DNA of 63,318 bases, the filler included, from Conidiobolus incongruus B7586 (taxonomy: Eukaryota), in the NCBI GenBank assembly GCA_000697335.1. It is 8 parts of 8 records of this genome, joined end to end, with 100 filler letters (N's around TTAATTAATTAA, not from the genome) between each part and the next. Parts side by side here need not be neighbours in the genome. Positions count along the whole stretch, not along the records: positions 21,343 to 46,121 come from JNEM01006003.1; positions 46,222 to 48,211 come from JNEM01006005.1; 6 more parts are not named here. The stretch is one strand, 5' to 3'. Shown here piece after piece: positions 17,028 to 61,946 of the stretch. Position 1 is the first letter of the stretch. Each line of letters opens with the position of its first letter. A program made the translations under genes and the position numbers. The notes below the pieces were generated by a model. It saw only the letters and a program-made list of their open reading frames with translations, was not told where the DNA came from and searched no databases.

Positions 17028-17029
17028 TA

Positions 17030-26164: not shown

Positions 26165-26236
26165 AGCTCTGCCTGAGAATCGAACTCAGATCGCAGGATT
26201 CAAAGTCCTGAGTGCTAACCATTACACCAGCGGAGC
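26165..26236 (-). tRNA. tRNA-Gln(TTG)
   Basis: GCTCCGCTGGTGTAATGGTTAGCACTCAGGACTTTGAATCCTGCGATCTGAGTTCGATTCTCAGGCAGAGCT folds as a cloverleaf with intact A/B boxes and a T4 run at the 3' end. One C5:A68 mismatch in the acceptor stem. Confidence 0.92.
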
Positions 26237-35544: not shown

Positions 35545-38500
35545 ATATCATTATTTTATGATACAGTATTCATTGGGAAACGAGATTAATTCACATTATA
35601 CTATAAATACTATATATGAAAAAGATGCTTGATTCCAAAAAATCAATAGTATAACATTATATAATAGAATCTGAATTTTATGATGATATAACTATTTTTT
35701 TATAAATTCATTTTTTCCTTACGTTTGTTCAATAATATCGTGTGAATTTATCGAGGTATAACTAATTTAATTCAAGAATCTGGTATCTATAACCTGCTAT
35801 AAATATAAATTTTTGAATTTTTCTGAATTAAGTTTTTTACTTAAAAATCAGATATTATCTTTTACATGAATGATCTCAACATTTCAATTAATAATTATTA
35901 CTTTGATTATATAATAATATTTATCATTTTATTTTTTAGATGATCAATTAAAATTTAAAAAATATATTTTTTTGGATAATAAAAATTCCTATAAGTTTTT
36001 TTATCTGGTTGAATTATACTTAAATTTTTTCAATCAAAATATAAAATTATTACAATAAAGATAAATTGAAATGAGTATTACATTAAAAATAAATTATATT
36101 AATTTCATGTAATATTAAATAGTCAATAATTATACCTATATGAAAATAAATTTATTACAAATATGCATTAACCTAATTGTTAAAAGAGTTTAATTTCAAT
36201 AGCTGGATAGATATGTTAAAATCTAGAACTCAATCAAGAACTATATTATATTGTTTATGGACTTGCAAAATATAGCTAATGTGAGACTGTTTTTTCAGGT
36301 AAGTAGTTACATTTTAGCAAGTGTGGGAAAAATACAGTCTTCTCAAGGGTGATCAGCTATAAGGGCGCCTGAATAGCATATTTTTCAGAATAAGGATTAG
36401 TTTGGATTACGCTTAAACCAATAACTCTGTTGTAAGTAGCTATCTCACGCTCACAACATCAAAAGCACTTTGTAAGTTACAGGTAAGGAAAAAGTAGATA
36501 TTAGAAGGTAGATCAGAAAAGGATATAATACTTATTATGTGCTAACTAGAAACTATTTTCATCTTAATAAACTTAGAATAGATGACATATTTTGCTTATT
36601 TATTAAAGGTGGAGTTCTTACTGATCTCTTTCTTGTCTAGCTTATCTCTTTGATTTCTCAGTTCAGTATGCAAAATAAAGTTTTTATAACGGGGATAGAA
36701 AATTACTCCAATATTAATTATTGTATCAACTTATAATCTACAGTATAGTTCCTTAAGCTATATATATTAAACACATATATTATTTTAAATAGAATTAATA
36801 TATTTATAAAAGTTGGAGAAATTTAACATTAGTATTAATTTCAATTAACATCCTCTTTGATTTATCAATTAATATATAAGCATAGTGGTAAATACCAATA
36901 TAGAATAGAGGAAGAGTTAATATAAAAGTAGTGTGACATAGAATGTGGTATTATAATGTGGTTGTAATGTGCAAATATAAACAAAGTTTAATTAAGCTTT
37001 GAACTGGGATAAGTCACTGATATATTAAGATTTATATTAGATAATGCTAATATATTATAATATTGATAGGATATAGTTTCAATTTTAGAAATAATAAAAA
37101 AGATAAAAAATAGTAAGAATTAAGAGAAAAAAAAACCTAGTTTATTAAATAATTCAATGTTATTTATATAATTAATTTAGTTATAAAAGTATAAATTAAT
37201 CATATAATTTATAGTTAATTGAATTATATAAAAATATATATAAGAATTTAAAAAACTAGTTTTTTAATACTCTTTTAATAAATTTCTTAAAAGAAACATA
37301 CTCTTTAGATTTTTACAAATAGATATAATAGGTTAAGATATTCTTAATATTTTTTAAAGGTTCTTATATAACTTCTTTAATAAGATAACTTATCTATTTT
37401 ACATAAAAATAAAGCTTATTCCTAATAGATTTAGATTTAATTATGTAATTAACATAGTATTTTTTTCTCTATCTTAATTAATAATTTAATGTAGTTTTAA
37501 AGTTTTTAATTGATTAAGAAAAGTATTAATATCTTCAAAATAAGGCTTGATTTTGAATATATAAAAGATAAAGTTGATCTTTAAAGTTAAAAGTAATTTT
37601 AAGATAATATTTTCAATATTTAAATCAATAGATTAAATTTTATAAGGATTATAATATAATAGCAAGTATTTTAGATTTAAGTTAGATTTAAGTAAGGTAA
37701 GTTTAAACATCAATTATTCTAAGTATACAAATATATTAATGTTAAATTTAAGAGGATTTTTAAATAACTTTAAATATTATTGTTTTATAATCCTTTAATG
37801 TTCTTCCAAGTTAAATTTAACAAAGAAATTAATATATTTGATATTAGATTAAAATTCAACAATATCTAAAGATAAATTGATTTAAAGTTTTAAAGCAATT
37901 ATTAAATTAGGATATTTATTATAATTAATAAAATAAGAGTTAAAACCTGTTGATTTATTATTAAAAATGTTAAATAAATATTATAATTGTTAGATATAAA
38001 TATTTTAATTTAATTGATTAGTGTTAATATAAGCTTTAATCATTTGGTTTAAGCTTTTAATAGTTTTTTCAATAAGTTTATTAGTTTAATAATAATTGAT
38101 AATAAATATAGCTAGATTAATCTTAAAAGAAAAAGATAATAACTTTCAAAATTAAAAGTTGAATTATATATTTTTATCAAATATAATAGTTTGTAGAACT
38201 TTATAATAGGTAAAGATATTAAAGAATAATAATTATATAATATTTTTAATTATAGAAGTTTTAAGATAAAGAATAGAATAAATATACTTAAAGAATAAAT
38301 TAATTACAATTAGTAAGTTATTATAATTAATTATTAATTTAAGAATTTCTATGAAATTAGGTTAGATTTATTATTAAGTTTTATTAAAAACTTATAGGGG
38401 AATAAATTCAATATATTTTAATTAGGTATTATATTTAGTTTTTTAGCATATTTCACAAGTATTAATGTATTTCTAAATTAATTCAATTAAAGAAAGTTAG

Positions 38501-40253
38501 TAATAACTTATTTTAATTCTTTTAACAGTCTTTAATTAGTTTTAATATTTTTTAACAAGTAAGTTATAATATTTATTAAATATTGCTTGTTAAATCTTAA
38601 GAATATTAAAGATATATAGACAATTATTATAATATAATAAGTTATCAATGATTTTAAATCTTTTAACATATTTTAATTAGTTTTCTAATAGTTTAAAAAG
38701 TTTTTTTTAATTAAAATAAAAAAATCATCATTTGATAATGTTTTTTAAACTAATTTAATAAATTCTTTATTGCCTTCATTAATAATTATTAAGTTAATAT
38801 TTACTAGCTTTTTATAATTAGAATAAAAGGATAAATATATAAGATTTTTTAATAAAGTATCTATAATAAAATTTTATTCACTTAAAAAATATTAGATAAA
38901 AAAATTAACTTAAATAATTTTAATCTATTTAACTTATTTTCTTGATAAGTACTTTTGAGTATTTAAATAAATAAGTGATTTGTGATTTATAAGTATTAAA
39001 AAAATTATAAGATAAGAAATATAAATGATTTTTAAATATTTCTATTAAAGCAAAAAGTTTTTATTTATAAACTAGGTATTTTAATTTAGCTGGTTTTATT
39101 TTTCTTAACTAGAATATTATAAGCTTTAAGATAATATTTATAAAATTAAACTTAACTTACTCTTCTTTATTTATTATTTTATTTTAAAGTTAAAAGGTAA
39201 AATATTAATTAAATTTAAACTAAGTTAATTATTTACTAATTATAAAAAAATTAAAGTTAGTAAAAATAATAATAGGTACTTTAAAATTAAAAATATATAA
39301 AGTAAAAATATTGGTAATATAGAAAATTAAAGCATTCATGTAAAAAATATATAATAGGGTTTATTTAAAAAGAGAGTTTTTTCTTAAGAAATTAGTTAAA
39401 AAAGTTATAAATTCAACAAAAAAATTAATGAAATCTTTAAAATAATATAATAATCTAAATATAAAAATAAGTTAATTTTTTTTTATAAATATAATAAAAG
39501 CTTTTACTTTATTAAGTTTAATTAGATTAATGTTAATTCCTTAAGAAAAAACAATATAATTATAAAAATAGATAAAAAAACACTAAAAATATATTTTAAT
39601 AACTTTAAAGGTAATTTATGTTTTTGAATAATTTGTAAAATTTGATTAATATATTAAATATATTCTTTTTAGTTTTTAAATAGATTAAGATATTATTAAA
39701 ATAAGTAATAATAAAGTTATTAAAAATAAGGTTAAAAAGGGAATTAATGAATTAAATAAAAATTACAAAACATTACACAATCTAAAGTTTATAATAATAA
39801 ATTTATAATAGCTTAATATAATATTGAAAATAATTAAAATAATAGAGTTTTCTTTAACTTTAATATTATAGTAATTATTTCTAATATTTAATTTAATGAA
39901 TATAATAGATTTAAGTAGTTTATTTTTAATATTATATTGGTTTAATAATAAAGTTTTATCCTTAATAGTTTTAGAGTTTAAAACATAGTTATTAATATAT
40001 AATCTTCAACCACCATTAACCTTTTATATAAAAAGAATAAGAGATTTTTATAATCAGGAAAAAAGTTTAATATGCCTATTTTTAAATAATTTTTAAATTT
40101 CTTCTTTTAAAGTTTAATATTATTTAAAAGATAAATAGTAAATAATTTTTAAGTATAGTTAAATACTTAAATGGAGTTTAATTTTATATTTAATATTATA
40201 TTTAAAAAGTAATTTATTCACAAGTTTAAAAACATTAGTATATTAACTTACTA

Positions 40254-41826
40254 CACTAACCTACAAAAGTGAGTCATAAAATCAAAAATATATATATTTT
40301 AATTTATAACTAAAACAATTGTATATATTAGATTACTTGAAACTATAATATATAATTAAGGTATATTATTTAATAATAGATAAATATATTTAGATATATT
40401 TAGTAAGCTATTAGCAAAAATATTAACCCTTAATATTTAACCAAGATGAGTTATAAATTTGCAGGTTTTTGAGATAAAGGGATATATATAACAATATATA
40501 ACTATATCTTTTTTCTCTTTTTGCTATTATTTTATATAATATTTTACAGATATACTAAATTCTTTTTATTAGTATTATTATACCTAAATCCCTCTCTAAA
40601 AAAATCTACTTGCACATTAATCAACTTTATAAAGAAAGTAAATCAACTTGTGATATTGCTAGAATTACTAGTGTTAGCTAGTCTACTATAGCTAAGGTTG
40701 TTAAGAATAGCAATGAAGAAACATTTAAACCTAAACTTAAATGTGCTAAAATCATAGATGAACATGATGAGAAGTATATCTATAGGTTAGTTAGTACAAA
40801 CAAATATAGTACTACTGTAGAAATATAGCAAGAATTACAAGACTATACAAGAATATTAGTTAGCACTGATACTATTATATGTGCTTTACATTAGCATAGA
40901 TACCACTTACACTTTAAAAAAAAACACCCCCAACTAAAGAAATCCCACTATAAAGCTAGGTAGGAGTTTAAATGTCACCACTAATGTTGAACTGAAACTA
41001 ATTAGAGTAAGGTTATTTAGTCTGATAAAACAAAAATATACCTTAGTAAATCTGATAAAAAAGTTAGATGCTTTAGAAAAGATACAGAACTACTTTATGA
41101 CCATTATGTTAATTTTACCCAAAAGTATAGTGGTGGGTTAATTATTGTTTGGGGATATATGTTGTCTTTAAGTATAAGGTATCTTTGTAAAGTTAATAAG
41201 GGAATTAATGTTGAGATGTACTAAAATATTGTGAACAATGAATTGAAAAAAACCATTGAATGGTATAGGTTAAACAAATCTAATGTTATTTTCTAGCAAG
41301 ATAATACTTCTTGCTATACTACAGCTTTTACTACTAAATAGCTTAAAAATAACAAGATAACAGTTATGAAGTGGCCTCTTTAATCTCCTAACTTTAATCT
41401 AATTAAACACCTTTAGGATTAGTTAAAAAAAGCTATTAAAGCTTTCCCCCTAGTAAAAAATTTAGATCAACTTTGGGAATATGTTCAAGAAGTATAGAAC
41501 AAGATTAACCCTTCTTAGTATAAGAAGTTAGTTGATTCTATACCCCACAAACTTAAAGAAGTTAGAAAAGCTAAAGGTAGATACACTAGGTTTTAATTTT
41601 TTTTTATCACCAAAAACCTACAAATTTATAACTCACCTTAGGTAAAATTTAAGGGTTTATATTTTAACTAATTAATAGCTAAATATCATCATTTAATGAT
41701 ATATATAACTAATAAATATAATAGATTTTAATTATTTAATTTAGGTTTATTTCATTAAATATTAATCAAGTTATTAGTAAAAATATAAGTGTTTTTGATT
41801 TTATGACTCACTTTTGCAGGTTAGTG
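40254..41826 (+). mobile_element. Tc1-family (DD34E) IR-DR transposon, copy 1, least degraded
   Basis: TA-flanked; 35-bp outer TIR CACTAACCT[A/G]CAAAAGTGAGTCATAAAATCAAAAA; inner repeats ~170-215 bp in. Colinear transposase ~40579-41596: KSTCDIARITSVS*ST (HTH), VI*SDKTK (WSDE), F*QDNT, WPL*SPNFNLIKHL* (WPxQSPDxNPIEHLW), AKGRYTRF*. Confidence 0.93.
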
Positions 41827-43428
41827 TATATTATATAAAAAGTAGTTATTAGTTATAACTTCATTAAAATTAATAAATAAAATATTAATAAATAAATAAT
41901 AAATAAATATATATATCTTTATAGATTATGAAAATTTTTAATTAGTTTTTTATATTAATTTTTGTTTATAATAATAGTATTATTTAACACAATTATAGAA
42001 TTAATATTAGGTAAAATATTTAATAATTTTATAATAGGGTAATATAAATGTTTTAAGATTAATTCTACTAATTTCTTTTAAATTATAAAAAAAAATAAAT
42101 TTATAACTTTTTAAAGTAATATTCATAAATAAAAAACTATGGTATTTAAACTAATTTTAACCTAGTATAAAATTATAACTAATATTACCAACTAAGAATT
42201 TAATATATTAAGAGTAGCTAAGAAATAGTAATAAATATTTAAATATAATATTAAATATTTATTTTATTAAATTATTAACATATTTAATTATTAAGCAGCT
42301 TTTTTAAATAGGTAAAAATAGTTTTATAATAATAAAAAAAGAAATAATATAATTAAAACAACTAAAGTTAATTAAAACATAAACAAGTATATCTATAAAA
42401 TATTTAGTTAAAAAAAACAATAAAGTGATAATTAAAAGTAAAAAATTATAAGGTAAATTAGTTACTAGAATATTTTTAATTTCTAATAATTTAATTAATT
42501 AGATCTCTTTAATATATATAGTTTAATTTTTGGAATTATTAGTTTATTAGAACTTTTGTGTATTAGATTAAAATCTATTAATGAATTATAAAAGAAGTAA
42601 TTTTAAAGTTATATTAATATTATTCAGGTTTAATTTATAATTAGTAGATTAAGATTATTAAAAATTAAACAGATATTGTTTTTTAAAAGGATATTTATCA
42701 TCTTTATAATTAATTTAAATTATTTAGAAATAATAATAACTTTTATTGACTTTTAAATAAGTTTTAGCTTTTTCATTAAAAGTTTTCTTATAGAGCTTTA
42801 AAACAGAAATATATATTATTTGAGATTTAAGTAACTAAAAGTAAATTTTAAAAGATTAATTTTTAAGATAAAAAATTTAATTATAAAATAAAAGATATCA
42901 TCAATTATTATTACTATATTACAAATATTAAAAAAAATATAATATTAAAATATTCCCAATTAATTAACTAAAGTTTTATTTGAAGATTAAAGTATTATAA
43001 TCACTTATAGATTTTTTTTAGTGATATTTAATATGTTTAAATATATCTCATTAAATTTCTTAAATAATTACCTTATAGAAGTTTTTTATTGAATTTAAAA
43101 AAGCTTTTATTTTGTTAATTAAACTTAATTTTTTAAATAAAATTTCTTTTTAAAAGCTTTTTCTAATTATTTAATGGTTTATATTTTTATAGTAGGTTAT
43201 CCCCTTAAAAACTCTTTATAATTAAGTTCATAATAAATTAACTACTAAATATAAGTTATTTTTTTTCAAATAAAATAACTAATTTAAAGATATTCTTTAA
43301 ATCTTTATTAAAAATTAAATTAAAATAATTTTTTATAATTTTAAAATAATATTCAAGATTGTAGAGGTTTTTAAAACTATTATAAATAGTTAATTTATTT
43401 TTAAAAATATTAAAAAGATAGTTTAATA

Positions 43429-44997
43429 TACTAACCTAGAAAAATAAGTCATAAAATCAAAAACACTTATATTTTTACTAATAACTTAATTAATATTTAA
43501 TGAAATAAACTTTAATTTAATAATTAAAATCAATTATATTTATTAATTATATATATCATTAAATAATAATATTTAGCTATTAATTGGTTAAAATATAAAC
43601 CTTTAAATTTTACCTAAGGTAAGTTATAAATTTATAAGTTTTTGGTAATTAAAAAAATTAAAACTTAATATATTTATCTTTAACTTTTCTAACTTCTTTA
43701 GGTTTATAAGGTATAGAATCAATTAACTTTTTATATTAAAAAGGGTTAATTTTATTTTATGTTTCTTAAATATATTTTTAAAGTTGATTTAAATTTTTTA
43801 CTAGAGGGAAAACTTTAATAGCTTTTTTTAACTAATCTAAAAAGTGTTTAATTAGATCAAAGTTAAAAAATTAAAAAAGCTATTTTATAACTATTATCTT
43901 GTTATTTTTAAGTTATTTGGTAGTAAAGACTATAGTATAAGAAAAAGTATTATCTTATTAAAAAATAACATTAGATTTGTTTAACCTATATTATTTAATA
44001 GTTTTTTCAATTTATTATTCAAAATATTTTAGTACATTTTAATATTAATTCCCTTATTAACTTTATAAAGATACTTTACACCTAAAAACAACATATATCT
44101 TTAAATAATAATTAACTTATAATTGTACTTTTAAGTAAAATTAACATAATAATTATAAAGTAGTTCTATATCTTTTCTGAAGCATTTAGCTTTTTTATTA
44201 GATTTACTAAGATATATTTTTATTTTATTAAACTAAATAACTTTATTCTAATTAGTTTTAGTTTAATATTAATAGTAATATTTAAACTCCCACTTAATTT
44301 TATAATGGGATTTTTTTAATTAAGGGTGTTTTTTCTTAAAATATAAGTGATATCTATGTTAATATAAAGTATATATAATAATATTAGTGTTAAATAATAT
44401 TCTTATATAGTTTTATAGTTTTTGTTATATTTCTACAATAATACTACACTTACTTATATTAACTAACCTATAAATATACTTCTTATTATATTTATCTATA
44501 ATCTTAATATTATTAAGTTTAAGTTTAAATTTTTTTTATTATTATTCTGAATAGCTTTAATTATAATAAACTAACTAACACTAGTAATTCTAATAATATT
44601 ATAAGTTAATTTATCTTTTTTATAAGGTTAATTAATATATAAATAGATTTTTTTAGAGAGGGATTTAGGTATAATAATACTAATAAAAAAATTTATTATA
44701 TCTGTAAAATATTATATAAAATAATAACAAAGAGAGAAAAAAGATATAGCTATATATTATTAAATATATCCCCTTATCTCAAAAACCTACAAATTTATAA
44801 CTCACCTTAGTAAAATATTAAAGGTTAATATTTTTGCTAATATTTTACTAAATATATCTAAATATATTTATTTATTATTAAAATATATACTTCAATTATA
44901 TATTATAGTTTTAAATAATCTAATATATATAGCTATTTTAGTTATTAATTAAAATATATATATTTTTGATTTTATAACTTACTTTTATAGGTTAGTA
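43429..44997 (-). mobile_element. Tc1-family transposon, copy 2 (inverted, more mutated)
   Basis: Full-length reverse-complement match to copy 1; TA-flanked; TIRs degraded by transitions. Confidence 0.9.
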
Positions 44998-46221
44998 TAT
45001 ATTAACTATAATAAAATAACTAGTTTATTAGATTTAAGCTTTTTAAGTTATATTCTTCTTAACTAAAAGTTATTTAATATAGATTTCTTAAAGGGTAATA
45101 AGCTTTTAAAGACTAAAGTTTTAAATTCACTTAGTAATTAAATTACTATCATTATTAAAATAATATGAGGCTATTTTTGTGATAGTATTATAGTATATAA
45201 TATTAAATTTAAATAAAATAAATTATAGATAAGCTTCAAAATAATAATAAATATATTTGATATAAATAATTATTAATTTCTAATAGGTTTTAATTGTTTT
45301 ATTATTGTTATTATATAAGTATAGTATTAAATACTAATATAATATAAAAGAAAACTTAATATGAGAGTAATGTGATATAAAATATAATACTATAATATAG
45401 TTATAGTGTATAAATATAAACAAAGTTTAATTAAGCTTTAAACTAGGATAAGTTACTAATATATTAAGATTTATATTAGATATTGCTAATATACTATAAT
45501 ATTAATAGGATATAGTTTTAATTTTAAAAATAATAAAAAAAAATAAGAAATAATAAGAGTTAAAAGAAAAAAACCTAGTATATTAGATAATTTAATGCTA
45601 TTTATATAATTAAATTAGCTATAAAAGTATAAATTAATTATATACTTTATAGTTAATTAAATTATATAAAAATATATATTGGAATTTAAAGAATTAGTCT
45701 CTTAACATAATATATTCCCAAATTTATAATAATATTTTTTAATTAAAACTTATTGAAATACAATACTAAATAATATATTTTAAAATATTTTTAAGGTTTT
45801 TATTTTCCCATAAAATTTTAAATTTCTTTTTTTTACTTAAATATTTCAATACCAAGATTATTAGCTTGTTTATAGTTTATTTTTTTTATTATTTATATTA
45901 AATATTATAGATTCAAGCTATAAAATATTTTTATATAGATATTTATATTTTTTTAAATTTAAAAAATATAATTTCTGAAGATAAAATAAATTGGGATAAT
46001 ATTTCTCAAATCAGCTTTTATTAGGGAATAATATTATAATTCTGTATTATTATAATTCATAATAATAAATTATATTTCTTGTGATTATTCTTATATTAAT
46101 ATTTATTTTATATCTTTATTANNNNNNNNNNNNNNNNNNNNNNNNNNNNNNNNNNNNNNNNNNNNTTAATTAATTAANNNNNNNNNNNNNNNNNNNNNNN
46201 NNNNNNNNNNNNNNNNNNNNN

Positions 46222-48211
46222 TTTTTAAAATTATTTAAAACTTAAAAACAGCTTATAAAATTGATATTTATCTAAAATTACTATATATTGCTAAATTTGT
46301 GATTTTAAAGTTAGAAAAAATATTACTTAAAATATATTATAGTTTAAAAAATTAATTTTAAATATTATTTATTATTTATTATTAAAATAAAAAAATATAT
46401 TGACAAATATCTATTTATTTTAATTAAAGAATTATTAAGATATTTTAATATTAATTATAAACTAACTTATAAAAGTAAGTTATAAAATCAAATATATATA
46501 TATTTTAATTAATAACTAAAACAATTGTATATATTAATTTATTTGAAATTATAATATATAATTAAAGAATATTATTTGATTATAAATAAATATATTTAGA
46601 TATATTTAGTAAACTATTAACAAAAATATTAACCCTTAATATTTAACTAAGGTAAGTTATAAATTTGTAGGTTTTTAAGATAAAAGGATATATTTAACAA
46701 TATATAACTATATCTTTTTTCTCTCTTTGTTATTATTTTATATAATATTATATACATATATTAAATTTTTTTTATTAGTATTATTATACTTAAATCCCTT
46801 TTTAAAAAAATTTACTTGTGTATTAATTAACTTTATAAAAAAGATAAATCAACTTATAATATTGTTAGAATTACTAGTGTTAACTAGTTTACTATAGTTA
46901 AAGCTGTTAAAAATAACAATAAAAACAGATATAAACTTAAACTTAAATATGTTCAGATTATAGATAAATATAATAAGAAGTATATTTGTAAGTTAGTTAA
47001 TATAAGTAAATATAGTACTGTTATAGAAATATAACAAGAACTATAAGATTATGTAAGAATATTAGTTAGTATTAATACTATTATATGTGTTTTATATTAG
47101 TATAGATACTATTTACACTTTAAGAAAAAACACCACTAATTAAAGAAATCCTACTATAAAGCTAAGTAAAAGTTTAAATGTTGCTACTAATATTAAACTA
47201 AAATTAATTAGAATAAAGTTATTTAGTTTGATGAAATAAAAATATACTTTAGTAAATCTAATAAAAAAACTAGATATTTCAGAAAAGATACAAAACTACT
47301 TTATAACCATTATGTTAATTTTACCTAAAAGTACAATAATAGATTAATTATTGTTTAGGGATATATGTTATCTTTAGTTGTAAGGTATCTTTATAAAGTT
47401 AATAAGGGAATTAATACTAAAATATACTAAAGTATTCTAAATAATAAATTAAAAAAACTATTAAATAATATAGGTTAAACAAATCTAATATTATTTTCCA
47501 GTAAAATAATACCTCTTGTTATACTCTAGCTTCTATTACCAAATAGCTTAAAAATAACAAGATAACAGTTATAAAGTGGTTTCTTTAATCTTTTAACTTT
47601 AACTTAATTAAATACCTTTGGAATTAGTTAAAAAAAGCTATTAAAGCTTTCCCTTAGCTAAAGATTTAAATCAACTTTAAAAATATATTTAAGAATTATA
47701 AAACAAGATTAACCTTTCTTAATATAAGAAGTTAATTAATTTTATATCTTATAAACTTAAAGAAGTTAGAAAAGCTAAAGGTAGATACATTAGGTTTTAA
47801 TTTTTTTATCACTAAAAACCTATAAATTTATAACTCACCTTAGGTAAAATTTAAGTATTTATATTTTAACCAATTAATAACTAAATATCATCATATAATG
47901 ATATATAATATTAATAAATATAATACATTTTAATTATTTAATTTAAGTTTATTTCATTAAATATTAGTTAAGTTATTAGTAAAAATATAAATGTTTTTGG
48001 TTTTATGATTTATTTTTATAGATTAGTATATAAACATATTATATATATTTAAGTTTAAACTTAATTTAATTAATAAAAATATAAAATAAACACCTTATAA
48101 TTCAACAAATATTTAAAAAAAATTAGAATAGTGACAGTTAAACTAAACTTATCAAAATATAACCAAAACCAAAGGTTTTTATATTAAATATCTATAATTA
48201 ATGAATTTTAA
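46222..48211 (+). mobile_element. Internal part of a mariner copy (46222-46459 and 48029-48211) interrupted by Tc1 copy 3
   Basis: The two flanks match ~15980-16220 and ~16220-16400 of the mariner and join at a duplicated TA. Confidence 0.75.
46460..48028 (+). mobile_element. Tc1-family transposon, copy 3
   Basis: Full-length match to copy 1; TA-flanked; heavily transition-mutated. Confidence 0.9.
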
Positions 48212-48311
48212 NNNNNNNNNNNNNNNNNNNNNNNNNNNNNNNNNNNNNNNNNNNNTTAATTAATTAANNNNNNNNNNNNNNNNNNNNNNNNNNNNNNNNN
48301 NNNNNNNNNNN

Positions 48312-51300
48312 AGAACAAAATTTGTCACCAGATTACTAGAAAGATTGGGTGTGAGTGTCCATTTCAAAGAACCTGTCTTATTAGTTGGTGAAACTGGTAC
48401 TGGTAAAACAACCGTCGTTCAACATCTCGCCAAACTCCTTAATACCAATTTAATTGCTGTAAATCTGTCTCAACAAACGGACTCCTCAGAATTGCTTGGA
48501 GGTTTCAAACCAATCGATTCAAACGCTTTAGGCAAAATGCTCTATGCCAACTTTACAGATTTGCTCTATAAAACATTCCCTCAACAGGGTAATGAAATTT
48601 TGAATATGGCTCACAGTATTGTCAACAAGAAGCAATGGTTGAAATTAGCCAAATTAATTAAGAAAACTATTACCAAAGTCGAACAAACTTTTGCCGTTCA
48701 ATCCCCCACCAAAAAGCCCAAGACAAATGGAACAGATCGTATGGAACTCTTGTCAGATTGGCTGAAACTGTCAACACAGGTTCAAGATCTCGAAAATCAA
48801 TTAGCCAAATCAGATAAAGCTTTAGTATTTCAATTTATTAAAGGTACACTCACCAAAGCCATCGAAAATGGAGATTGGTTATTGCTCGACGAAATTAATT
48901 TGGCTACTACAGAAACTTTGGAATGTTTGAGTGGTCTTTTACAAGATTCTAACGGCTCTATCCTACTATCCGAAAAGGGCGATACCGAGCCAATTCGTAG
49001 ACATCCCAACTTTAGAGTGTTCGCTTGTATGAATCCCTCGACCGATGTTGGTAAGAAGGATTTACCTCCAGGGTTTAGAAACAGATTTACAGAGTTTTAT
49101 GTACCTTCTCCTGATACTAATCAAGAAGATTTAATTGCTATTATTGAGCTCTATATTTCAAAGCTGGCTCATGGCGACAACTCTGCCGTGATGGATGTAG
49201 TTGAATTCTATCAAAAATCTAAGCATCTTCAGATTTCTAGATCGATTGCTGATGGTGCCAATCAAGCTCCTCATTTTAGTATTCGTACACTTACTCGTGC
49301 ATTAAATTATGTCAGTCGCGTCACTTCCATTTTTGGACTTCGCCGTGCTTTGTTCGAAGGGTTGTCGATGTCATTCACTACTCAACTCATTCCAAAGAGT
49401 CAAAAAGCCATGAAAGATCTCCTATTCTCCACAGTTTTGAGAGTATATGACAATCCTCAACAAATACTAAGTCTGAATCCTAAACCTCTATCACTTGAGC
49501 AGAGAGACAAATACGTCCAATTCGGCTCCTATATCTTACCCAAAGGACCTTTGGAAATCAATCCCGCAGACACTGCAAAATATATTCAAACTGCATCTGT
49601 CAAGATCAATTTGCACAATTTGGCACGTGTTGTGATGGATGGAAGAGCTCCCGTTCTCATTCAAGGTCCCACCTCTGCCGGTAAAACAAGTATGATCGAG
49701 TATTTGGCTAAGAAGACCGGTCATAAATTCGTTCGTATCAACAATCATGAACACACTGATCTCCAAGAGTATATTGGATCTTACATTTCAAAAGACGGTA
49801 AACTGATCTTCCAAGAAGGTGCCTTAGTCGACGCCTTACGCAACGGCCACTGGATCGTACTTGACGAATTAAATTTAGCGCCTTCTGATGTTCTCGAAGC
49901 TCTCAATCGTTTATTGGACGACAATCGCGAATTATTAATTGCCGAAACGCAACAAATCGTCAAACCTCACCCTCACTTCATGCTATTTGCCACCCAAAAT
50001 CCAGCCGGGCTGTACGGAGGTCGTAAAACTCTGTCCCGAGCATTTCGCAATCGTTTCTTAGAGCTTCACTTTGACGAATTACCTGAAGACGAATTGGAAA
50101 TTATTTTGACGAATCGATGCAGTATCCCTCCCTCCCACTGTAAATTATTGGTCGAAACCTATACCACTCTTTTCAGAATTCGTAAAACTACCCGAATTTT
50201 CGACGGTAAACATTCTTTTATCACCCTTAGAGATTTGTTCAGATGGGCGAATCGTCACGCACAGGATAAACACGAATTAGCTAGGAATGGGTACATGATC
50301 TTAGCGGAACGTGTACGCAAACCCGAGGAAAAGCAAGCAATTTTGGAGGTTTTGGAAAAGGTCATGAAGACCAAGATTGATATTAATTTGATGTATAATG
50401 AATCACCTCAAATTCATGAAGCTTTCGACAAGTTGAAGAAATTGAACAAGTTTAATTCTATTGCTTGGACTAATGCCACAAAGAGACTGTACTCCCTCGT
50501 TTACGAATGTCTAAAGCATAAGGAACCCGTATTGTTGGTTGGTGAAACGGGATGTGGTAAAACAACAGTATGTCAAATCCTTTCCACAATTCTGGAGCAA
50601 GATTTAACCATTCTTAATTGTCACCAAAATACCGAATCTTCCGATATTTTGGGTAGTCAACGTCCCAACCGCAATCGCGTGTTAACATCCCAAGCTAGAC
50701 AATCGATCATTGATGTTATGCGACTAGCTTATCCTGAATCCTCCCAAGAAGATTGGATAAATTTGGACCCCAGTTCCCTCGCCGACAACTTTTTGAAATT
50801 AGCTCAAATTCCCTCCAACTCTAATCCACTTTCGCCACACGTTGCGAATGGCACTATATCTGTCCAATTACTTGAAGATTTGAAAGCTCAGTGCCAAAGC
50901 TTTTCCGAACTCTTCACATGGCACGACGGCCCTCTCATCCAGTCTATGAAGCAGGGTGGTCTGTTCCTCCTTGATGAAATTTCCCTCGCTGAAGATTCCG
51001 TCCTAGAACGTTTGAACAGTGTTTTGGAACCTGAAAGAACTTTGTTCTTAGCTGAAAAGAGCTCAGAAACCAATGAATCTTTGACTGCTGTGGAAGCTTT
51101 CCGATTCTTAGCTACCATGAATCCTGGTGGTGACTATGGTAAAAAAGAACTATCTCCTGCTTTGAGGAATCGTTTCACCGAAATTTGGGTCCCTATGGTT
51201 GAAGAGCGCTCGGATTTGGAGATTATAATTCGCAAGCAGTTGGATCGTTTAAGTGATTCCGATGCCGTCGAATACTCCAACCGCATCTTGGACTTTATCG

Positions 51301-52559
51301 AATGGTTCGGTAAAGATATCGTTAAATCCGAATCCAAACAATTATTCAGTATTCGTGACATTTTGTCATGGGCTAACTTTATCAATCTCAACTATTCCGA
51401 TAGAGCCGATCTTCACTCTCTCTTCGTCCACGGTGGTTGTGTAGTATTTTTAGATGGGTTGGGTTCCAACTCCTCCATGGTCAGTTTGTCAATGACGGGT
51501 CAACATCAAATTTACGAATTACGCAAGAAGTGCTTAGAAAAATTAGGCAATAATCAAATTCCCAGCGATGATTTGAAACGCGATTTCTATCGCTTTGCAA
51601 TGGATGAATCTGATGACGATGTGCAGTACGCCCAGAGTTTGGTTTACGATTCTCAATCCGAATTTGGTATTGGTCCCTTCCGAATTCCCAAGAATAATCA
51701 TGCTCCCAGCAAGAATTTCTTTTCGATCGACGCTCCTACCACCTTCGACAACGTTCGCAGAGTGTTGAGAGGCTTGCGTATCGGTAAATCTATTATGCTC
51801 GAAGGCAGCCCGGGTGTGGGTAAGACCAGTTTGATCCAAGCTTTGGCGGACATGTCCGGCAACAAGTTGGTTAGAATTAATCTCTCAGAACAGACCGATC
51901 TCATCGATCTCTTCGGTACTGACTTACCCGTAGAAGGCGGCAAAGGCGGTGAATTCTGCTGGCGAGATGCACCATTTTTGCAAGCTATGCAGAATGGCTG
52001 GTGGGTATTATTAGATGAAATTAACTTGGCGTCCCAATCCGTCCTCGAAGGTCTGAACTCATGCTTAGATCATCGTGGCACCGTCTACCTCCCCGAACTC
52101 GACAAGGAATTCACGAAAGCGCCCGGTTTCCTCATGTTTGCAGCCCAGAATCCATTGCAGCAGGGTGGCGGTCGCAAAGGTTTGCCCAAATCCTTCATCA
52201 ATAGATTTACTCAAGTGTACATCGAACCACTCTTGACTAAAGATTTGCAAATTATTTGTAAGAGATCTTTTCCACAAATCGAATCTTCGTTGGTTGATAA
52301 GATTTTACAATTCAACAGTCAGTTGCACCACTTGACCATGGTCGAAAACAAATTCGGTAAGTTAGGTCAGCCTTGGGAATTCAATTTGAGAGATGTGTTC
52401 AGACTTCTCACATTACTCACTAAGGATGTGTTATGTGATAGGAATTCCCAATTACCACTGAGACCTGAATACTATTTGGATGTGATTTATTTGCAAAGAA
52501 TGAGAAGTTTGGAAGATCGCCAAGCTCTTCTGGATCTGTATTTCAGTATTTTCGGCAAG
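48312..52559 (+). CDS. MDN1: Midasin (Rea1) AAA+ ATPase, internal fragment, contig 1
   Basis: Tandem AAA modules GETGTGKT, GPTSAGKT, GETGCGKT and GSPGVGKT, each with an LLDE-type Walker B and an NRF-type motif. Open at both gaps. Confidence 0.96.
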
Positions 52560-52659
52560 NNNNNNNNNNNNNNNNNNNNNNNNNNNNNNNNNNNNNNNNN
52601 NNNTTAATTAATTAANNNNNNNNNNNNNNNNNNNNNNNNNNNNNNNNNNNNNNNNNNNN

Positions 52660-55309
52660 CTTGCCGAAAATACTGAAATACAGATCCAGAAGAGCTTGGC
52701 GATCTTCCAAACTTCTCATTCTTTGCAAATAAATCACATCCAAATAGTATTCAGGTCTCAGTGGTAATTGGGAATTCCTATCACATAACACATCCTTAGT
52801 GAGTAATGTGAGAAGTCTGAACACATCTCTCAAATTGAATTCCCAAGGCTGACCTAACTTACCGAATTTGTTTTCGACCATGGTCAAGTGGTGCAACTGA
52901 CTGTTGAATTGTAAAATCTTATCAACCAACGAAGATTCGATTTGTGGAAAAGATCTCTTACAAATAATTTGCAAATCTTTAGTCAAGAGTGGTTCGATGT
53001 ACACTTGAGTAAATCTATTGATGAAGGATTTGGGCAAACCTTTGCGACCGCCACCCTGCTGCAATGGATTCTGGGCTGCAAACATGAGGAAACCGGGCGC
53101 TTTCGTGAATTCCTTGTCGAGTTCGGGGAGGTAGACGGTGCCACGATGATCTAAGCATGAGTTCAGACCTTCGAGGACGGATTGGGACGCCAAGTTAATT
53201 TCATCTAATAATACCCACCAGCCATTCTGCATAGCTTGCAAAAATGGTGCATCTCGCCAGCAGAATTCACCGCCTTTGCCGCCTTCTACGGGTAAGTCAG
53301 TACCGAAGAGATCGATGAGATCGGTCTGTTCTGAGAGATTAATTCTAACCAACTTGTTGCCGGACATGTCCGCCAAAGCTTGGATCAAACTGGTCTTACC
53401 CACACCCGGGCTGCCTTCGAGCATAATAGATTTACCGATACGCAAGCCTCTCAACACTCTGCGAACGTTGTCGAAGGTGGTAGGAGCGTCGATCGAAAAG
53501 AAATTCTTGCTGGGAGCATGATTATTCTTGGGAATTCGGAAGGGACCAATACCAAATTCGGATTGAGAATCGTAAACCAAACTCTGGGCGTACTGCACAT
53601 CGTCATCAGATTCATCCATTGCAAAGCGATAGAAATCGCGTTTCAAATCATCGCTGGGAATTTGATTATTGCCTAATTTTTCTAAGCACTTCTTGCGTAA
53701 TTCGTAAATTTGATGTTGACCCGTCATTGACAAACTGACCATGGAGGAGTTGGAACCCAACCCATCTAAAAATACTACACAACCACCGTGGACGAAGAGA
53801 GAGTGAAGATCGGCTCTATCGGAATAGTTGAGATTGATAAAGTTAGCCCATGACAAAATGTCACGAATACTGAATAATTGTTTGGATTCGGATTTAACGA
53901 TATCTTTACCGAACCATTCGATAAAGTCCAAGATGCGGTTGGAGTATTCGACGGCATCGGAATCACTTAAACGATCCAACTGCTTGCGAATTATAATCTC
54001 CAAATCCGAGCGCTCTTCAACCATAGGGACCCAAATTTCGGTGAAACGATTCCTCAAAGCAGGAGATAGTTCTTTTTTACCATAGTCACCACCAGGATTC
54101 ATGGTAGCTAAGAATCGGAAAGCTTCCACAGCAGTCAAAGATTCATTGGTTTCTGAGCTCTTTTCAGCTAAGAACAAAGTTCTTTCAGGTTCCAAAACAC
54201 TGTTCAAACGTTCTAGGACGGAATCTTCAGCTAGGGAAATTTCATCAAGGAGGAACAGACCACCCTGCTTCATAGACTGGATGAGAGGGCCGTCGTGCCA
54301 TGTGAAGAGTTCGGAAAAGCTTTGGCACTGAGCTTTCAAATCTTCAAGTAATTGGACAGATATAGTGCCATTCGCAACGTGTGGCGAAAGTGGATTAGAG
54401 TTGGAGGGAATTTGAGCTAATTTCAAAAAGTTGTCGGCGAGGGAACTGGGGTCCAAATTTATCCAATCTTCTTGGGAGGATTCAGGATAAGCTAGTCGCA
54501 TAACATCAATGATCGATTGTCTAGCTTGGGATGTTAACACGCGATTGCGGTTGGGACGTTGACTACCCAAAATATCGGAAGATTCGGTATTTTGGTGACA
54601 ATTAAGAATGGTTAAATCTTGCTCCAGAATTGTGGAAAGGATTTGACATACTGTTGTTTTACCACATCCCGTTTCACCAACCAACAATACGGGTTCCTTA
54701 TGCTTTAGACATTCGTAAACCAGGGAGTACAGTCTCTTTGTGGCATTAGTCCAAGCAATAGAATTAAACTTGTTCAATTTCTTCAACTTGTCGAAAGCTT
54801 CATGAATTTGAGGTGATTCATTATACATCAAATTAATATCAATCTTGGTCTTCATGACCTTTTCCAAAACCTCCAAAATCGCTTGCTTTTCCTCGGGCTT
54901 GCGCACACGTTCCGCTAAGATCATATACCCATTCCTAGCTAATTCGTGTTTATCCTGTGCGTGACGATTCGCCCATCTGAATAAATCTCTAAGGGTGATA
55001 AAAGAATGTTTACCGTCGAAAATTCGGGTAGTTTTACGAATTCTGAAAAGAGTGGTATAGGTTTCGACTAATAATTTACAGTGGGAGGGAGGGATACTGC
55101 ATCGATTCGTCAAAATAATTTCCAATTCGTCTTCAGGTAATTCGTCAAAGTGAAGCTCTAAGAAACGATTGCGAAATGCTCGGGACAGAGTTTTACGACC
55201 TCCGTACAGCCCGGCTGGATTTTGGGTGGCAAATAGCATGAAGTGAGGGTGAGGTTTGACGATTTGTTGCGTTTCGGCAATTAATAATTCGCGATTGTCA
55301 TCCAATAAA
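52660..55309 (-). CDS. MDN1: Midasin internal fragment, contig 2 (redundant with contig 1)
   Basis: Reverse complement of ~49910-52559 with identical protein and a few synonymous differences. Confidence 0.9.
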
Positions 55310-55409
55310 NNNNNNNNNNNNNNNNNNNNNNNNNNNNNNNNNNNNNNNNNNNNTTAATTAATTAANNNNNNNNNNNNNNNNNNNNNNNNNNNNNNNNNNN
55401 NNNNNNNNN

Positions 55410-58400
55410 TGAAACTGTATAATTAGAGCAAACGAATTGGAACAAACCGAAATTGATACTCTTGATGTATGCTTTAAGCTGAGCCAAAATATCTTTCAAA
55501 TTGTTGACATCGCGATCATGCTTGATCCTAGCATTAAATAACTTATTCGCTATCAAATGATAAGCACCAACTAACTGGCAAAACTTATTGGACTTGTCGA
55601 CTGAATACTTTTCGAAACATTGGACTAATTGTGATAGCGAGAATAGAGTCTTTTCCATATCGAGCCAGTAAGGATCCTTGGGAATTTGAGTTCTTTGGGA
55701 CAATAATTGCAATGAACCCAACGTACTCGCGTGATATTTAGCTAAATTGACTAGTGGCAAATTCTGAGACGCGTTCAACATTCTCAAAATTGACATGGTC
55801 GTCACTGACTGGAACAGTTGTGTAGGTCCAAATAATGTTGACGAAGTGGGATTATTATTGAAGGAGGTGGGCAACAGGTGATTGAAACTGACTGTCCAAT
55901 GTCTCGAGAACCACAAATTCATCATTTCAAGAAGGATGGCTACAACTTTTTGGGGAGATGTAGATCCCGACTCTAAACTCCAGAGCATCAATTGGTGGGC
56001 GAAGAAATCAGTAACGGGTCGCGAACTGTGGGACAGCGATTGGATCAACCACTTTTCAAAGTCAGATCGAATATTAGGTAGAGATTGATATTGGAGGGAT
56101 GTAGCCTCCCAAATTCTTGAAATGTAGTCACTTTCCGAACTGATGGACAAGTTGTCGAAAATTGAGATAGCGGAAACGAATACGGGATCGGTATCCTGCG
56201 TCAATTTGGAAGTTTTAGTATAATCGTCTTTCAGCTTATGGATGTGGGCCAAGTAGTCATTCACGGAAGTTTTTACGAGGCCTTTGAGCTCTTCGGTATT
56301 GGGATTGCCAAATTTCATAATGTACAGACTGGCTAACGCTTTCAATGTGGTGCGTTCAATACCTTCAGAACGTTGTAGGAAAGGAATGTTGAAGCCGGTA
56401 TCAGACATGTTGGTGTACAAATCCACGGTTTGTAACTGAAGTGCGATATGATCCAACAATTCCCGCTGATCGATACTCGTCAATGTAAGTCCGTGCAATT
56501 TGTTCCAAATGCGTTTCATAGACTTGTTGGATGACACGTCAATAAATTCAAATATGGAGTTAGCAATCTTTTCAACCATTGCGAAGCTCTCCAAATTGTT
56601 AAAATTATTAGCAGCCTTTGAAATTTTTTGGACAAGGATGCCGAATTTGGAATAATCTAACTGAACCTCGTCAGTGTAGGTGTAAAATTCACGAATTTGA
56701 GTAACCAAGTCACTCAAGTGAGATTCCTTAGATCTTAAATTCATTCCAATAGAAAACACTACAGCTTGGGCCAGTTGCAAACAAGCTTTGAAGAATGGAT
56801 AGAACAGTGTAACAAGCTCAGGATCTTGACAATTGGGATAGTTTTGATACAGTTCAAATCGTAAACTCTGTTCGATCAGTGTCCATCCAGTGATCTTTTG
56901 AGCGCATTGAGTTTGGAAGCGTTGGTGCAAGTGTTCGAGGGAGTAGTATTGGGGTAGAATTCGCAGCTGCTGGCACAGTTGGTTGATCGCTTGCCACGTG
57001 TTGGTGACAGGTTCGACATTGATGCTTTCGATACGCTGTTTCAACGAGATGTAGAAACTGGTATTGGCTGGAAGGTACACAGGTTGGGACTTGAACAATT
57101 CTGTAGAAATATCCAACTGTTGAGCAAGTTGTTCATACAATTGGTTGAGCGTTTGGAATAAGGGATTGGAATCCAGTTCACTCAAGAATCTGACATAGTG
57201 CTCGACAATGTGATTCGAATTCGATTGGCCTTCAAAAATTCGATTCAAAATTAAAATCCTCAATTGGTAATCGTTACCAGTTGTCATTTCGACAAAGTAA
57301 GACAATGCAATATTCAATTTAGAAATCCATGAATCGTCCAGCATGTCGGGGACATTCGATACCAAATCCATAAGATAGGCAGCTTGGAGACGGATAATAA
57401 ACAGTTGGGAGTCGTAAGAAATCAATTCAGATGGAGGTTTACGGAGAGCTTGGGCAAGTTCTTGCTCATCAACCATTCTAGAAGACAGTAACTGAGTGAT
57501 TTCGTTGGGTTGCAACTTGTAGACAGTTTGGATAGATTCAAACAAGGCTCTATCGAAGGAGTAACCCCTCTGCATACGTTCAGATACCCACTGGATCAGG
57601 AAGGCCAAATCACGGGACCTTCCTTGCACCAGTTCGAAAGCTTGAAGCTCTTTGGTGGGGTTGGATACCAAATGGTGCAAGATGTAAATGGCTTGGATTT
57701 GATTGGCATCAATAATACCTTTACTTTGCGCAATTTGGAATGAATCTAACCAGTTCAAGGACCAATCGGATGTGGGTGGGAAACAGATTTCAATACCACG
57801 ATTTCTCATGGGACGAGATAGTTCACCATAGGAGGGATCCATCGTCAAGAAGATGCGGAAGTTGGGGTGAGGGTGGACCCAGTATACTTCACCATTGGCT
57901 TTAAGACCACGTTCGTGCACCATGAGAGATCCGTTGGTTTCAAGGAGAGGGTTGAGACGATCCAAAACGGAGGGATGACATAGGTTGGCATTGTCGATGA
58001 GTAACCAGTGGCCTTGCTCCATAGCGGTGACCAGAGGACCATCGACCCATTCGAATCTTCCAGAAACAGATTGCTGAAGTAAAGATTGAAGTTGATTGTA
58101 AAGAGATATAATAGGCTGAACCCAAGCATTTTGGCACAAATTCTTATCCAAGTTGAGAGCTTGAATGACAGTGCTAATCAAATTGATAATGGACTGAACG
58201 ATAAAGTCAAAACTCTCGGAAGATTTCAAAGACTGGACCTGGTATTTTAACTGTTCTAGAGCACTGAGATGGGTTAACAACTGATTGCGGTTGTCGGCAT
58301 GAAGAGATTGGGTTACGGTAAGATGAATCTGACCGATTACATCCATGATCAGATCCTGAAGCTTCTGTCTGTAGCGAGTGGGCTCCATCTGTTCGAAACC

Positions 58401-61226: not shown

Positions 61227-61326
61227 NNNNNNNNNNNNNNNNNNNNNNNNNNNNNNNNNNNNNNNNNNNNTTAATTAATTAANNNNNNNNNNNNNNNNNN
61301 NNNNNNNNNNNNNNNNNNNNNNNNNN

Positions 61327-61393
61327 CAATCTGGCCTACAGAATGGCTGTGTCAGTGTCCTCAATGACGCTCCAAGAGCTAATAACCGTGACA
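61327..61393 (+). mobile_element. Terminal 67 bp of the same LTR family, 10 bp upstream of tRNA-Ala; truncated by gap
   Basis: Exact reverse complement of 26247-26313, ending ..TAATAACCGTGACA. Confidence 0.9.
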
Positions 61394-61403
61394 CAATTTA
61401 AAA

Positions 61404-61476
61404 GGGGAATTAGCTCAAATGGTAGAGCGCTCGCTTAGCATGCGAGAGGCACGGGGATCGATACCCCGATTCTCCA
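61404..61476 (+). tRNA. tRNA-Ala(AGC)
   Basis: GGGGAATTAGCTCAAATGGTAGAGCGCTCGCTTAGCATGCGAGAGGCACGGGGATCGATACCCCGATTCTCCA has G3:U70, anticodon AGC, the eukaryotic Ala ATCGA T-loop and a downstream T4. Confidence 0.96.
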
Positions 61477-61816
61477 TGTTTTAAAACTTGTTTTTTATTT
61501 ACAAATATTTTCAATATGAACACTCTTAATATTTTAACTTCTAAAATGTAAAAAATTAATATTATTAGTTTTGATTATATTTTTCATTTGATACAAATGA
61601 TACGATCAATATCATTAACTATTATAGATGATAAGTATATTTTTCCTGATCAGTCAATTTTATTGGTTCTTGCTATAATACGTTAGCAGATTAATTACAC
61701 TTTGTTCATAATAGTTGAACAATTTCAAAATATATTTGAGCAGTCGAGGCTCAAAATTTTAATTCATACTTCAGCAATATTTATTGTTATCACCTAATAT
61801 TCTCACAAAAAAATTG

Positions 61817-61946
61817 ATTGGCTCAGAAGCATACAAAACAAAGATATCAATTTGTCAAACATCAGCAGTGATTGGCTAATTTCGTGACCTACTTCAACTC
61901 CATGGCTAATTGGCTAAAGTCTCGAATTGTTCGCGAATTTGATTGG
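61817..61946 (+). promoter_or_regulatory. Putative MCM3 promoter: four inverted CCAAT boxes and a TTCGCGAA element
   Basis: ATTGG at 61817, 61871, 61909 and 61942; palindrome TTCGCGAA at 61930-61937; TATAAAA ~20 bp after the last ATTGG. Confidence 0.5.

Follow-up and report, generated by a model that had tools for sequence, protein, structure and literature searches.

A RIP-like pattern of transition hypermutation in transposon relics on contigs of Conidiobolus incongruus B7586

Introduction

What has changed the transposons at the end of one contig of Conidiobolus incongruus B7586 (GenBank assembly GCA_000697335.1) so thoroughly, and with such apparent preference for certain dinucleotides, while genes on the same contig are unaffected? 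The transposons in question, a Ty3/gypsy-like long terminal repeat (LTR) element and three copies of a Tc1 element, occupy the greater part of a CpG-free block (36,691-48,412) within a window of 63,318 bases, by which we mean the whole stretch of DNA that was analysed. The window is not a single chromosomal stretch: eight contigs are strung together via seven identical linkers of composition N44-TTAATTAATTAA-N44, that is, 44 N on either side of TTAATTAATTAA, and adjacency across a linker carries no meaning. A preceding sequence-only reading had described one hypermutated block of ~11 kb; its signature stands, its contiguity does not, as the linker at 46,122-46,221 joins two contigs within it. 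The main hypermutated block accordingly covers the end of one contig and all of another, the 1,990-base contig at 46,222-48,211.

The changes recall repeat-induced point mutation (RIP), which in Neurospora crassa and other Pezizomycotina is a premeiotic process dependent on RID and DIM-2, and which is regarded as a trait of Dikarya and practically of Pezizomycotina. Whether a process of this kind can account for relics found in this host is the question addressed here.

Results

The composition of the repeats sets them apart from the rest of the window. CpG is wholly missing from 36,691-48,412, where about 65 would be expected, and a second CpG-free stretch lies at 14,932-18,182. The five repeat blocks of the window, when pooled (14.4 kb, 14% GC), contain a single CpG against 73.6 expected, with 103 GpC, whereas the AT-rich unique DNA that served as control (fifteen 500-base windows outside the blocks with GC <=20%, pooled; 7.5 kb, 18% GC) has 48 CpG against 61 expected, with 60 GpC, and the genes have an observed/expected CpG ratio near 1, in keeping with the initial impression that unique genes had retained the CpG and CpA lost from the block. 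RIP is customarily diagnosed from a TpA/ApT ratio >=0.89, a (CpA+TpG)/(ApC+GpT) ratio <=1.03 and a composite index >0, and the repeat blocks have RIP-like values of all three: TpA/ApT is 1.19 (control, 0.88), (CpA+TpG)/(ApC+GpT) is 0.62 (control, 1.38; Fisher p 1e-22), and the composite index exceeds zero in 26 of 26 scored 500-bp windows, compared with 2 of 90 outside the blocks (p 7e-24), both of these reaching only +0.09. Thus a spectrum common to repeats and unique DNA, the outcome named beforehand as contrary to a RIP-like process, was not found for the AT-rich unique DNA of this window (1.38 versus 0.62). Windows outside the blocks with 12-17% GC (for example, at 14,501, 34,501 and 6,001) are clearly negative for the composite index, so that the signal is not produced by low GC alone, and the ratios switch no further than 250 bases from the points at which similarity to other repeats of the window ends (537/538 and 17,625/17,626). 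At its left edge the main block is intermediate in this respect; the 750 bases beside the LTR (36,119-36,868) have a (CpA+TpG)/(ApC+GpT) ratio of ~1.0 and a TpA/ApT ratio >1 and keep 4 CpG, and this zone could represent either a leaking of the process into the flank or an older relic.

The three Tc1 copies are of an element of 1.58 kb and are 83-87% mutually identical by self-comparison. Copy c1 (40,252-41,828, plus strand, flanking TA included) is the least mutated, with 22% GC; c2 (43,427-44,999, minus strand) has 14.5% GC and 24 stops in the c1 frame; and c3 (46,458-48,030, plus strand) lies on the separate 1,990-base contig. Their assignment to the Tc1/mariner group is based on the presence of transposase domains, terminal inverted repeats (TIRs) and a TA at both sides of each copy. 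Copy c1 can be read as a single unbroken frame with 16 in-frame stops and no frameshift; it matches HTH_Tnp_Tc3_2 of Pfam at 31.9 bits (cut-off 31.5) and DDE_3 at 24.3 bits, under the cut-off of 28.6, and it aligns with the catalytic domain of Sleeping Beauty (SB100X, 5cr4_A) at E 3.2e-30 with two one-residue gaps, and without gaps with an intact 338-residue homologue, P0241, at E 5.7e-83. The altered motifs that had been picked out by inspection were found, namely, in the alignment with Sleeping Beauty, *SDK facing WSDE and SPNFNLIK facing SPDLNPIE, as was the pair of TIRs. The catalytic E is replaced by K, and the Tc1 copies are therefore dead. As the flanks of the three copies are no more similar than shuffled sequence, and as each copy is bordered by TA, they represent three separate insertions. 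A common origin of c1 and c3 by copying of a single nested insertion was considered and rejected, the similarity of their flanks being at the shuffle level; the c3 flanks resemble repeats at 15,982-16,402 and 17,141-17,372.

In the colinear three-copy alignment of 1,577 columns, 273 columns differ by transitions (136 C/T and 137 A/G) and only 33 by transversions, with 7 three-state and 6 gap columns, which bears out the description of three colinear, near full-length and transition-laden copies; just 138 columns are invariant for G or C. The near equality of C/T and G/A columns indicates that both strands were equally affected. The direction of change was judged against P0241, which was used as a protein so that any synonymous codon was allowed. 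Codon differences explicable by C>T/G>A only, as opposed to T>C/A>G only, number 83:13 in c1, 125:12 in c2 and 117:6 in c3 (binomial p <=1e-13). Likewise, 12 of the 26 stop columns have CAA, CAG or TGG retained in a sister copy, and the stops of c1 face W six times, Q three times and R twice in P0241.

The base that follows the mutated cytosine governs how often it was hit. The hit rate per copy-by-site cell is 45% for CpA, 29% for CpT and 17% for CpC, and the visible sites left untouched in all three copies are 17 of 131, 74 of 198 and 47 of 78, respectively; by trinucleotide, the rates are 0.41-0.52 for NCA, 0.22-0.36 for NCT and 0.13-0.21 for NCC, the 5' base having little effect. The alignment of copies that had been suggested as a check thus yields a dominance of transitions with the order CpA > CpT > CpC. 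The accompanying claim that most changes convert CpA/TpG to TpA holds for the per-site rate, which is the highest, and not as an absolute majority, since the hits at CpA (183) and CpT (177) are nearly equal in number. No trace of CpG is left in the Tc1 DNA alignment. However, Arg residues of P0241 are replaced by H, C, Y or a stop, which deamination of CGN would yield, at 10 (c1), 9 (c2) and 11 (c3) positions, which suggests that CpG was also a target, probably on both strands; in addition, Cys or His of c1 is often Tyr in c2.

The same spectrum extends to the Tc1 family at large. Four public runs (X1-X4), which were found via the MDN1 region of the window and all derive from one sample, were aligned with c1 at >=80% identity. 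In X1, 23,885 of 493,904 contigs (4.8%) match, and the figure is ~24,000 of ~490,000 per run, so that the family must comprise thousands of diverged copies, as roughly estimated by contig count. Transitions make up 243 of the 250 variable places in X1 (C>T 79, G>A 79, A>G 47, T>C 38), with an indel at one place, and 239 of 245, 251 of 258 and 239 of 245 in X2, X3 and X4, respectively; in the X1 family, G:C>A:T is found at 158 places and G:C>T:A at 1. At 6 of the 38 listed in-element places that were checked, the family majority is G/C where all three window copies have A/T, indicating that less mutated Tc1 copies exist elsewhere in the genome. An exact search of the metagenome contigs with the c1 TIR gave 0 matches, and Tc1 with its stops masked found none in a word-based protein search, whereas an exhaustive search gave 6,524. 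P0241 belongs to a 90% cluster of 14 members, found on contigs of ~1.2 kb in other public assemblies, and an active relative of the Tc1 family may persist somewhere.

The main block is essentially one Ty3/gypsy-like LTR element on the minus strand (36,875-45,707) with two nested Tc1 copies inside, measuring ~5.7 kb when both inserts are subtracted. Its 3' LTR in element orientation (36,875-37,269, minus strand, ~395 bp) ends in TA..TA and is a direct repeat of the 5' LTR (45,314-45,707, minus strand), which ends in TA..CA; these ends would derive from TG..CA after TpG>TpA and CpA>TpA changes. A candidate target-site duplication, TAATA, is present at 36,870-36,874 and as the identical 5 bases at 45,708-45,712, a match that chance could produce in AT-rich DNA. 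The segment 45,708-46,121, which begins with this TAATA and continues as an AT-rich repeat to the contig end, is also CpG-free and has a composite RIP index >0. The interior at 37,270-40,251 (minus strand) carries near 39,703 the string TYFNNILIYLKT, which contains the YFNN noted at the outset; it was picked by eye, a YxDD regular expression otherwise returning mostly noise, and we take it to be the mutated reverse transcriptase motif Y-x-D-D-ILIYS. In the same interior, a presumed integrase core is legible in a single frame, and the integrase zinc-binding domain at 38,431-38,589 matches Integrase_H2C2 of Pfam at 23.4-24.1 bits, below the cut-off of 25.5. This was the only match when the frames of the element were searched with Pfam at E up to 5; neither RVT nor RNase H nor Chromo was returned, and the reverse transcriptase, RNase H and chromodomain matches may be hidden by the hypermutation. 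The element had been called a chromovirus, a name that may apply but is confirmed only as far as the Ty3/gypsy-like LTR part (no Chromo match; Integrase_H2C2 at 24.1 bits). The several mariners reported alongside it were not recovered, the remaining repeats being LTRs and unclassified AT-rich families. The interior between the Tc1 insertions (41,829-43,426, minus strand) gave no Pfam match and can be assigned to the gag/protease region by position only, and the 5' internal end (45,000-45,313, minus strand) is likewise assigned from its location, with c2 on one side and the right LTR on the other. Some contigs of runs X1, X2 and X4 pass directly from 40,250 to 41,827; these represent the host element lacking the Tc1 insert, and they confirm the nesting. 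The GC skew of the LTR interior on the plus strand is +0.24 at 37,300-40,251 and +0.15 at 41,829-43,426, so that its coding (minus) strand is poor in G, and the Tc1 copies have no skew; this could be native composition or could reflect an additional strand-biased G>A process acting on the retroelement.

The nesting host also dates the changes. The two LTRs of a retroelement are identical at integration, and those of the present element are now 48 transitions and 10 transversions apart over ~400 bp, with 22 CpA sites hit and 6 kept, 25 CpT hit and 22 kept, and 1 CpC hit and 8 kept, in the same order as in Tc1. It follows that mutation acted on the integrated DNA and not on a transposition intermediate. 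The hits shared by c2 and c3 are close to those expected from independence (54 versus 50.5, 36 versus 28.7 and 8 versus 4.6), which argues that each copy was mutated separately. Private transitions and transversions rise together, being 45 and 2 in c1, 191 and 13 in c2, and 167 and 18 in c3, and a run test detects no strand clustering in c1 and c2 and weak clustering in c3 (z -2.3); the parallel increase of transversions and the near-random strand runs favour a gradual or repeated light action over one burst. On the other side of this independence, 13 stops are common to c1, c2 and c3 (in the Tc1 frame at 40,679, 40,982, 41,003, 41,018, 41,222, 41,381 and 41,420 and in six more codons), above the number predicted for independent hits from average rates, and these are explained either by very hot sites or by descent from an already damaged progenitor mobilised in trans.

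The host had been supposed to lie outside Dikarya, and the proposed check by MCM3 and MDN1 phylogeny agrees with this. The MCM3 fragment, whose top match is 91% identical, is 59% identical to its counterparts in Neoconidiobolus thromboides and Entomophthora muscae, and in a tree of 29 rows it groups with Neoconidiobolus and Entomophthora of the Entomophthoromycotina (Shimodaira-Hasegawa-like approximate likelihood ratio test, SH-aLRT, 99) on a long branch, with Dikarya as a separate clade (99). In the MDN1 tree (1,664 columns), whose taxa include neither a basidiomycete nor a member of Entomophthorales, the sequence is placed beside Coemansia among zygomycete lineages and not within the ascomycete clade (100), a position to be read with a long-branch warning. 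The U12 intron mentioned with the same claim is found as an AT-AC intron of 84 nt in a prefoldin-5-like gene (5,444-5,527, plus strand). Introns of the U12 type are characterised by the 5' site ATATCCTT, a branch site (TCCTTRAY) situated 10-20 nt before the 3' end, an AC or AG end and a restored exon frame; the present intron opens with ATATCCTT and carries TTCCTTAAT 16 nt upstream of the 3' AC, and from its first codon onwards the exon that follows matches prefoldin 5 (6nr8_5, residues 60-84; E 6e-8). It therefore appears to be a real U12-type intron; its neighbours are ordinary short GT-AG introns. Together, the two trees and the AT-AC intron place the host outside Dikarya and near Entomophthoromycotina/Zoopagomycota.

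Discussion

The results described above show that the changes in the repeats are almost solely transitions, strand-equal and C>T/G>A-directed, with the context order CpA > CpT > CpC and CpG removed as well, and that they are independent per copy and limited to repeated DNA. The pattern is supported as RIP-like in every respect that can be read from the DNA. The C:G pairs were converted to T:A after integration, and we consider the chances evenly balanced that the conversion was carried out by a repeat-targeted, RIP-like genome defence that deaminates cytosine. In the predicted course of such a defence, the repeats would be recognised as repeats, via homology or heterochromatin, and an enzyme of the DNMT family or a deaminase would turn C, or 5-methylcytosine (5mC), into T, or U, while the DNA of the genome is double-stranded. 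The enzyme would act in many light rounds and not in a single heavy burst, and the mutation would have killed a Tc1 family to which several percent of the contigs in the assemblies belong. The sequence-only reading had put forward a RIP-like defence, or methylation-driven deamination, in an early-diverging lineage; the pattern it described stands, and sequence alone is compatible with both canonical RIP and methylation-driven deamination as its mechanism.

The alternative that survives best is therefore the methylation route, in which heterochromatic transposons are methylated at CpN by an enzyme of the DIM-2/DNMT1 type and slow mitotic deamination of 5mC, with no homology sensing, lets C>T changes at CpA and CpG accumulate over millions of years. 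We regard it as a tentative but real possibility. Among the points in its favour, functional Dim2 of Zymoseptoria tritici drives C>T changes specifically at CpA in mitosis (PMC8016269), and a DIM-2 homologue has been reported from the early-diverging Phycomyces (PMC13297926). In the present data, transitions track transversions in c1, c2 and c3, the LTR pair is old (10 transversions in ~400 bp), strand clustering is slight, and CpG is wholly lost from the repeats while the genes stay near the expected value, all of which would suit slow deamination. Against it, early-diverging fungi are said in a review to use N6-methyladenine (6mA) largely instead of 5mC (PMC13297926), which may or may not hold for this organism, and the CpA > CpT > CpC order and the absence of CpG are expected equally from RIP. 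The RIP-like defence is preferred to the methylation route because the pattern has the complete set of RIP hallmarks, because CpG, CpA and CpT are all hit on both strands, because genes for RID-like proteins with two methylase domains occur in relatives (PMC11105155), and because early-diverging fungi are described as poor in 5mC (PMC13297926). With a Zoopagomycota-like host, the process would not be restricted to Dikarya.

Several observations weigh against this preference. Canonical RIP spares single-copy DNA of the same kind, has length and identity thresholds, belongs to the premeiotic or sexual phase and needs a RID-type enzyme, and the present sequences give no evidence of such requirements; the window contains no single-copy transposon relic. 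The scaling of transitions with transversions among the copies fits a gradual build-up equally well, and the LTR pair has a transversion divergence of 2.5%, which makes the element old enough for slow deamination of 5mC. The 13 shared stops may mean that a damaged progenitor was still spreading, which would be odd for an efficient RIP, and the Tc1 family attained thousands of copies. Strand clustering, absent from c1 and c2 and weak in c3, is unlike that of single RIP events in Neurospora. The markers used to place the host, MCM3 and MDN1, are on different contigs from the block, the link between them being that the contig with the AT-AC intron shares repeat families with the block and that the MDN1-positive runs are rich in the Tc1 family. 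Finally, in a kingdom-wide k-mer screen by Badet and Croll, which was confined to scaffolds >50 kb, strong signatures were reported only in four classes of Pezizomycotina (PMC12543289), and a 2026 review gives RID as ascomycete-only (PMC13297926).

A more specific form of the RIP-like defence, namely, a true homology- or repeat-directed C-to-T mutator in a lineage of Zoopagomycota that works via an enzyme other than the RID of ascomycetes or via an ancestor of RID, is conceivable at somewhat short of an even chance. If it were true, RIP-type defence would be older than the split between Dikarya and zygomycetes or would have evolved twice, and the mutator could act without a regular sexual cycle.

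The remaining explanations fare much worse. Neutral decay of old, dead transposons under a strong AT mutation bias would be in line with the ~18% GC of unique non-coding DNA in the window and with the older repeat families, which have many A<->T transversions and a transition:transversion ratio near 1, but such drift fails on the unique AT-rich control, which is equally AT-rich and yet has the higher dinucleotide ratio and most of its expected CpG, and on the 158:1 ratio of G:C>A:T to G:C>T:A places in X1; moreover, only 6 of the 1,577 Tc1 columns contain gaps, and we judge this explanation very unlikely. It is highly improbable that the copies were mutated before integration by APOBEC-like editing of single-stranded transposition intermediates (cDNA), an origin with which the G-poor coding strand of the LTR interior (plus-strand skew +0.24) and the 13 stops common to all Tc1 copies could be reconciled; the LTRs, identical at integration, have since come to differ by 48 transitions in the same context order, Tc1 moves as double-stranded DNA and has balanced C/T and G/A columns (136 and 137), and the hits in c2 and c3 fit independence. 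An artefact, whether of damaged DNA, of errors in amplification or of misassembled low-complexity reads, is scarcely credible even in so fragmented and redundant an assembly (seven linkers, three overlapping MDN1 contigs), because GH81 and other genes of the contig that carries the relics are unaffected, the four runs of the one sample have the same variant classes, and errors would ignore transposon borders, reading frames and dinucleotide context.

The RIP-like pattern is worth comparing with those of known systems. With RIP of Neurospora and other Pezizomycotina, it shares C:G>T:A transitions on both strands, the preference for CpA, high TpA/ApT and low (CpA+TpG)/(ApC+GpT) ratios, the confinement to repeats, stops derived from CAA, CAG and TGG, and AT-rich relics beside intact genes. 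It differs from Neurospora RIP in that the host is Zoopagomycota-like, CpA is less strongly preferred, the number of CpT hits being almost as high, CpG is entirely lost, and the affected family exists in thousands of copies. In Microbotryum and other Pucciniomycotina, Hood et al. (2005) reportedly described a RIP-like hypermutation that targets TpCpG, which is similar in being a transition hypermutation of transposon copies outside Pezizomycotina; in contrast to the TCG target of Microbotryum, the order of 3' bases here is A > T > C and the 5' base is of minor effect. The Dim2 system of Zymoseptoria tritici (PMC8016269) also produces C>T changes at CpA in transposons, where gradual accumulation is possible; in that ascomycete, however, the changes are tied to measured 5mC and a known enzyme, whereas the present case is known from sequence.

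The closest precedent is that of Stajich et al. (eLife 2024, PMC11105155), who report composite-index signals in 24.2% of windows of Zoophthora radicans and 2.4-5.7% in other Entomophthorales, compared with 17.4% in Neurospora, together with RID-like proteins having two DNA_methylase domains, and who suggest RIP outside Dikarya. The present case belongs to the same broad lineage, gives the same kind of indices and leads to the same suggestion, and the novelty imagined in the sequence-only reading is weakened to that extent, since both the index signals in Entomophthorales and RIP outside Dikarya had already been published. The evidence in that paper, as far as its main text extends, is window composition only, offered with major caveats by its authors; here, in contrast, the copies have been aligned, polarised against an intact homologue and found to have been mutated after integration, and the organism stands on a separate long branch, with 59% MCM3 identity to named Entomophthoromycotina. 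A literature search for RIP in Zoopagomycota, in Conidiobolus, in early-diverging fungi or outside Dikarya, covering main texts with supplements outside its scope, found no alignment-based case; the per-genome RIP tables of PMC11105155 may include closer relatives. The case is thus an alignment-level, better-documented instance of a kind already proposed for this fungal lineage.

Its significance lies in providing copy-by-copy evidence from a zygomycete-grade fungus, consisting of a polarised spectrum, a context order, timing by an LTR pair and a family of thousands of copies, through which the existence of RIP outside Dikarya, and the enzyme responsible, become a testable question. Screens that discard fragmented assemblies can overlook such genomes, because in this one the contigs break precisely at mutated repeats.

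Other features of the window

The eight contigs occupy positions 1-15,576, 15,677-21,242, 21,343-46,121, 46,222-48,211, 48,312-52,559, 52,660-55,309, 55,410-61,226 and 61,327-63,318, and the linkers between them are at 15,577-15,676, 21,243-21,342, 46,122-46,221, 48,212-48,311, 52,560-52,659, 55,310-55,409 and 61,227-61,326. The contig ends at 15,576, 15,677 and 46,121 and the contig at 46,222-48,211 fall within hypermutated repeats, where the assembly breaks. A second block with the same signature (14,903-17,625), which crosses the contig join at 15,577-15,676, has a composite index >0 in 4 of 4 scored windows and has repeat families in common with the main block, and a third, small block (1-537) is a repeat of 16,494-17,049.

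The gene content of the window is of fungal type and includes GH81, GH16, a SUR7-like open reading frame, a P450, MCM3 and MDN1. Three overlapping MDN1 contigs (49,910-52,559, 52,660-55,309 and 58,716-61,226) carry the same 2.5 kb of one gene; one pair is 7 transitions and 2 transversions apart (99.66%), and the third differs by 1 base, a redundancy suggestive of a second haplotype or nucleus type that was left unmerged. The possibility that these 99.7-99.96% identical stretches are unmutated genomic repeats, which would oppose RIP, was considered and rejected, as they are overlapping contigs of a single gene. Two tRNA genes were identified with Rfam RF00005, at 26,165-26,236 on the minus strand (60 bits) and at 61,404-61,476 on the plus strand (58.6 bits).

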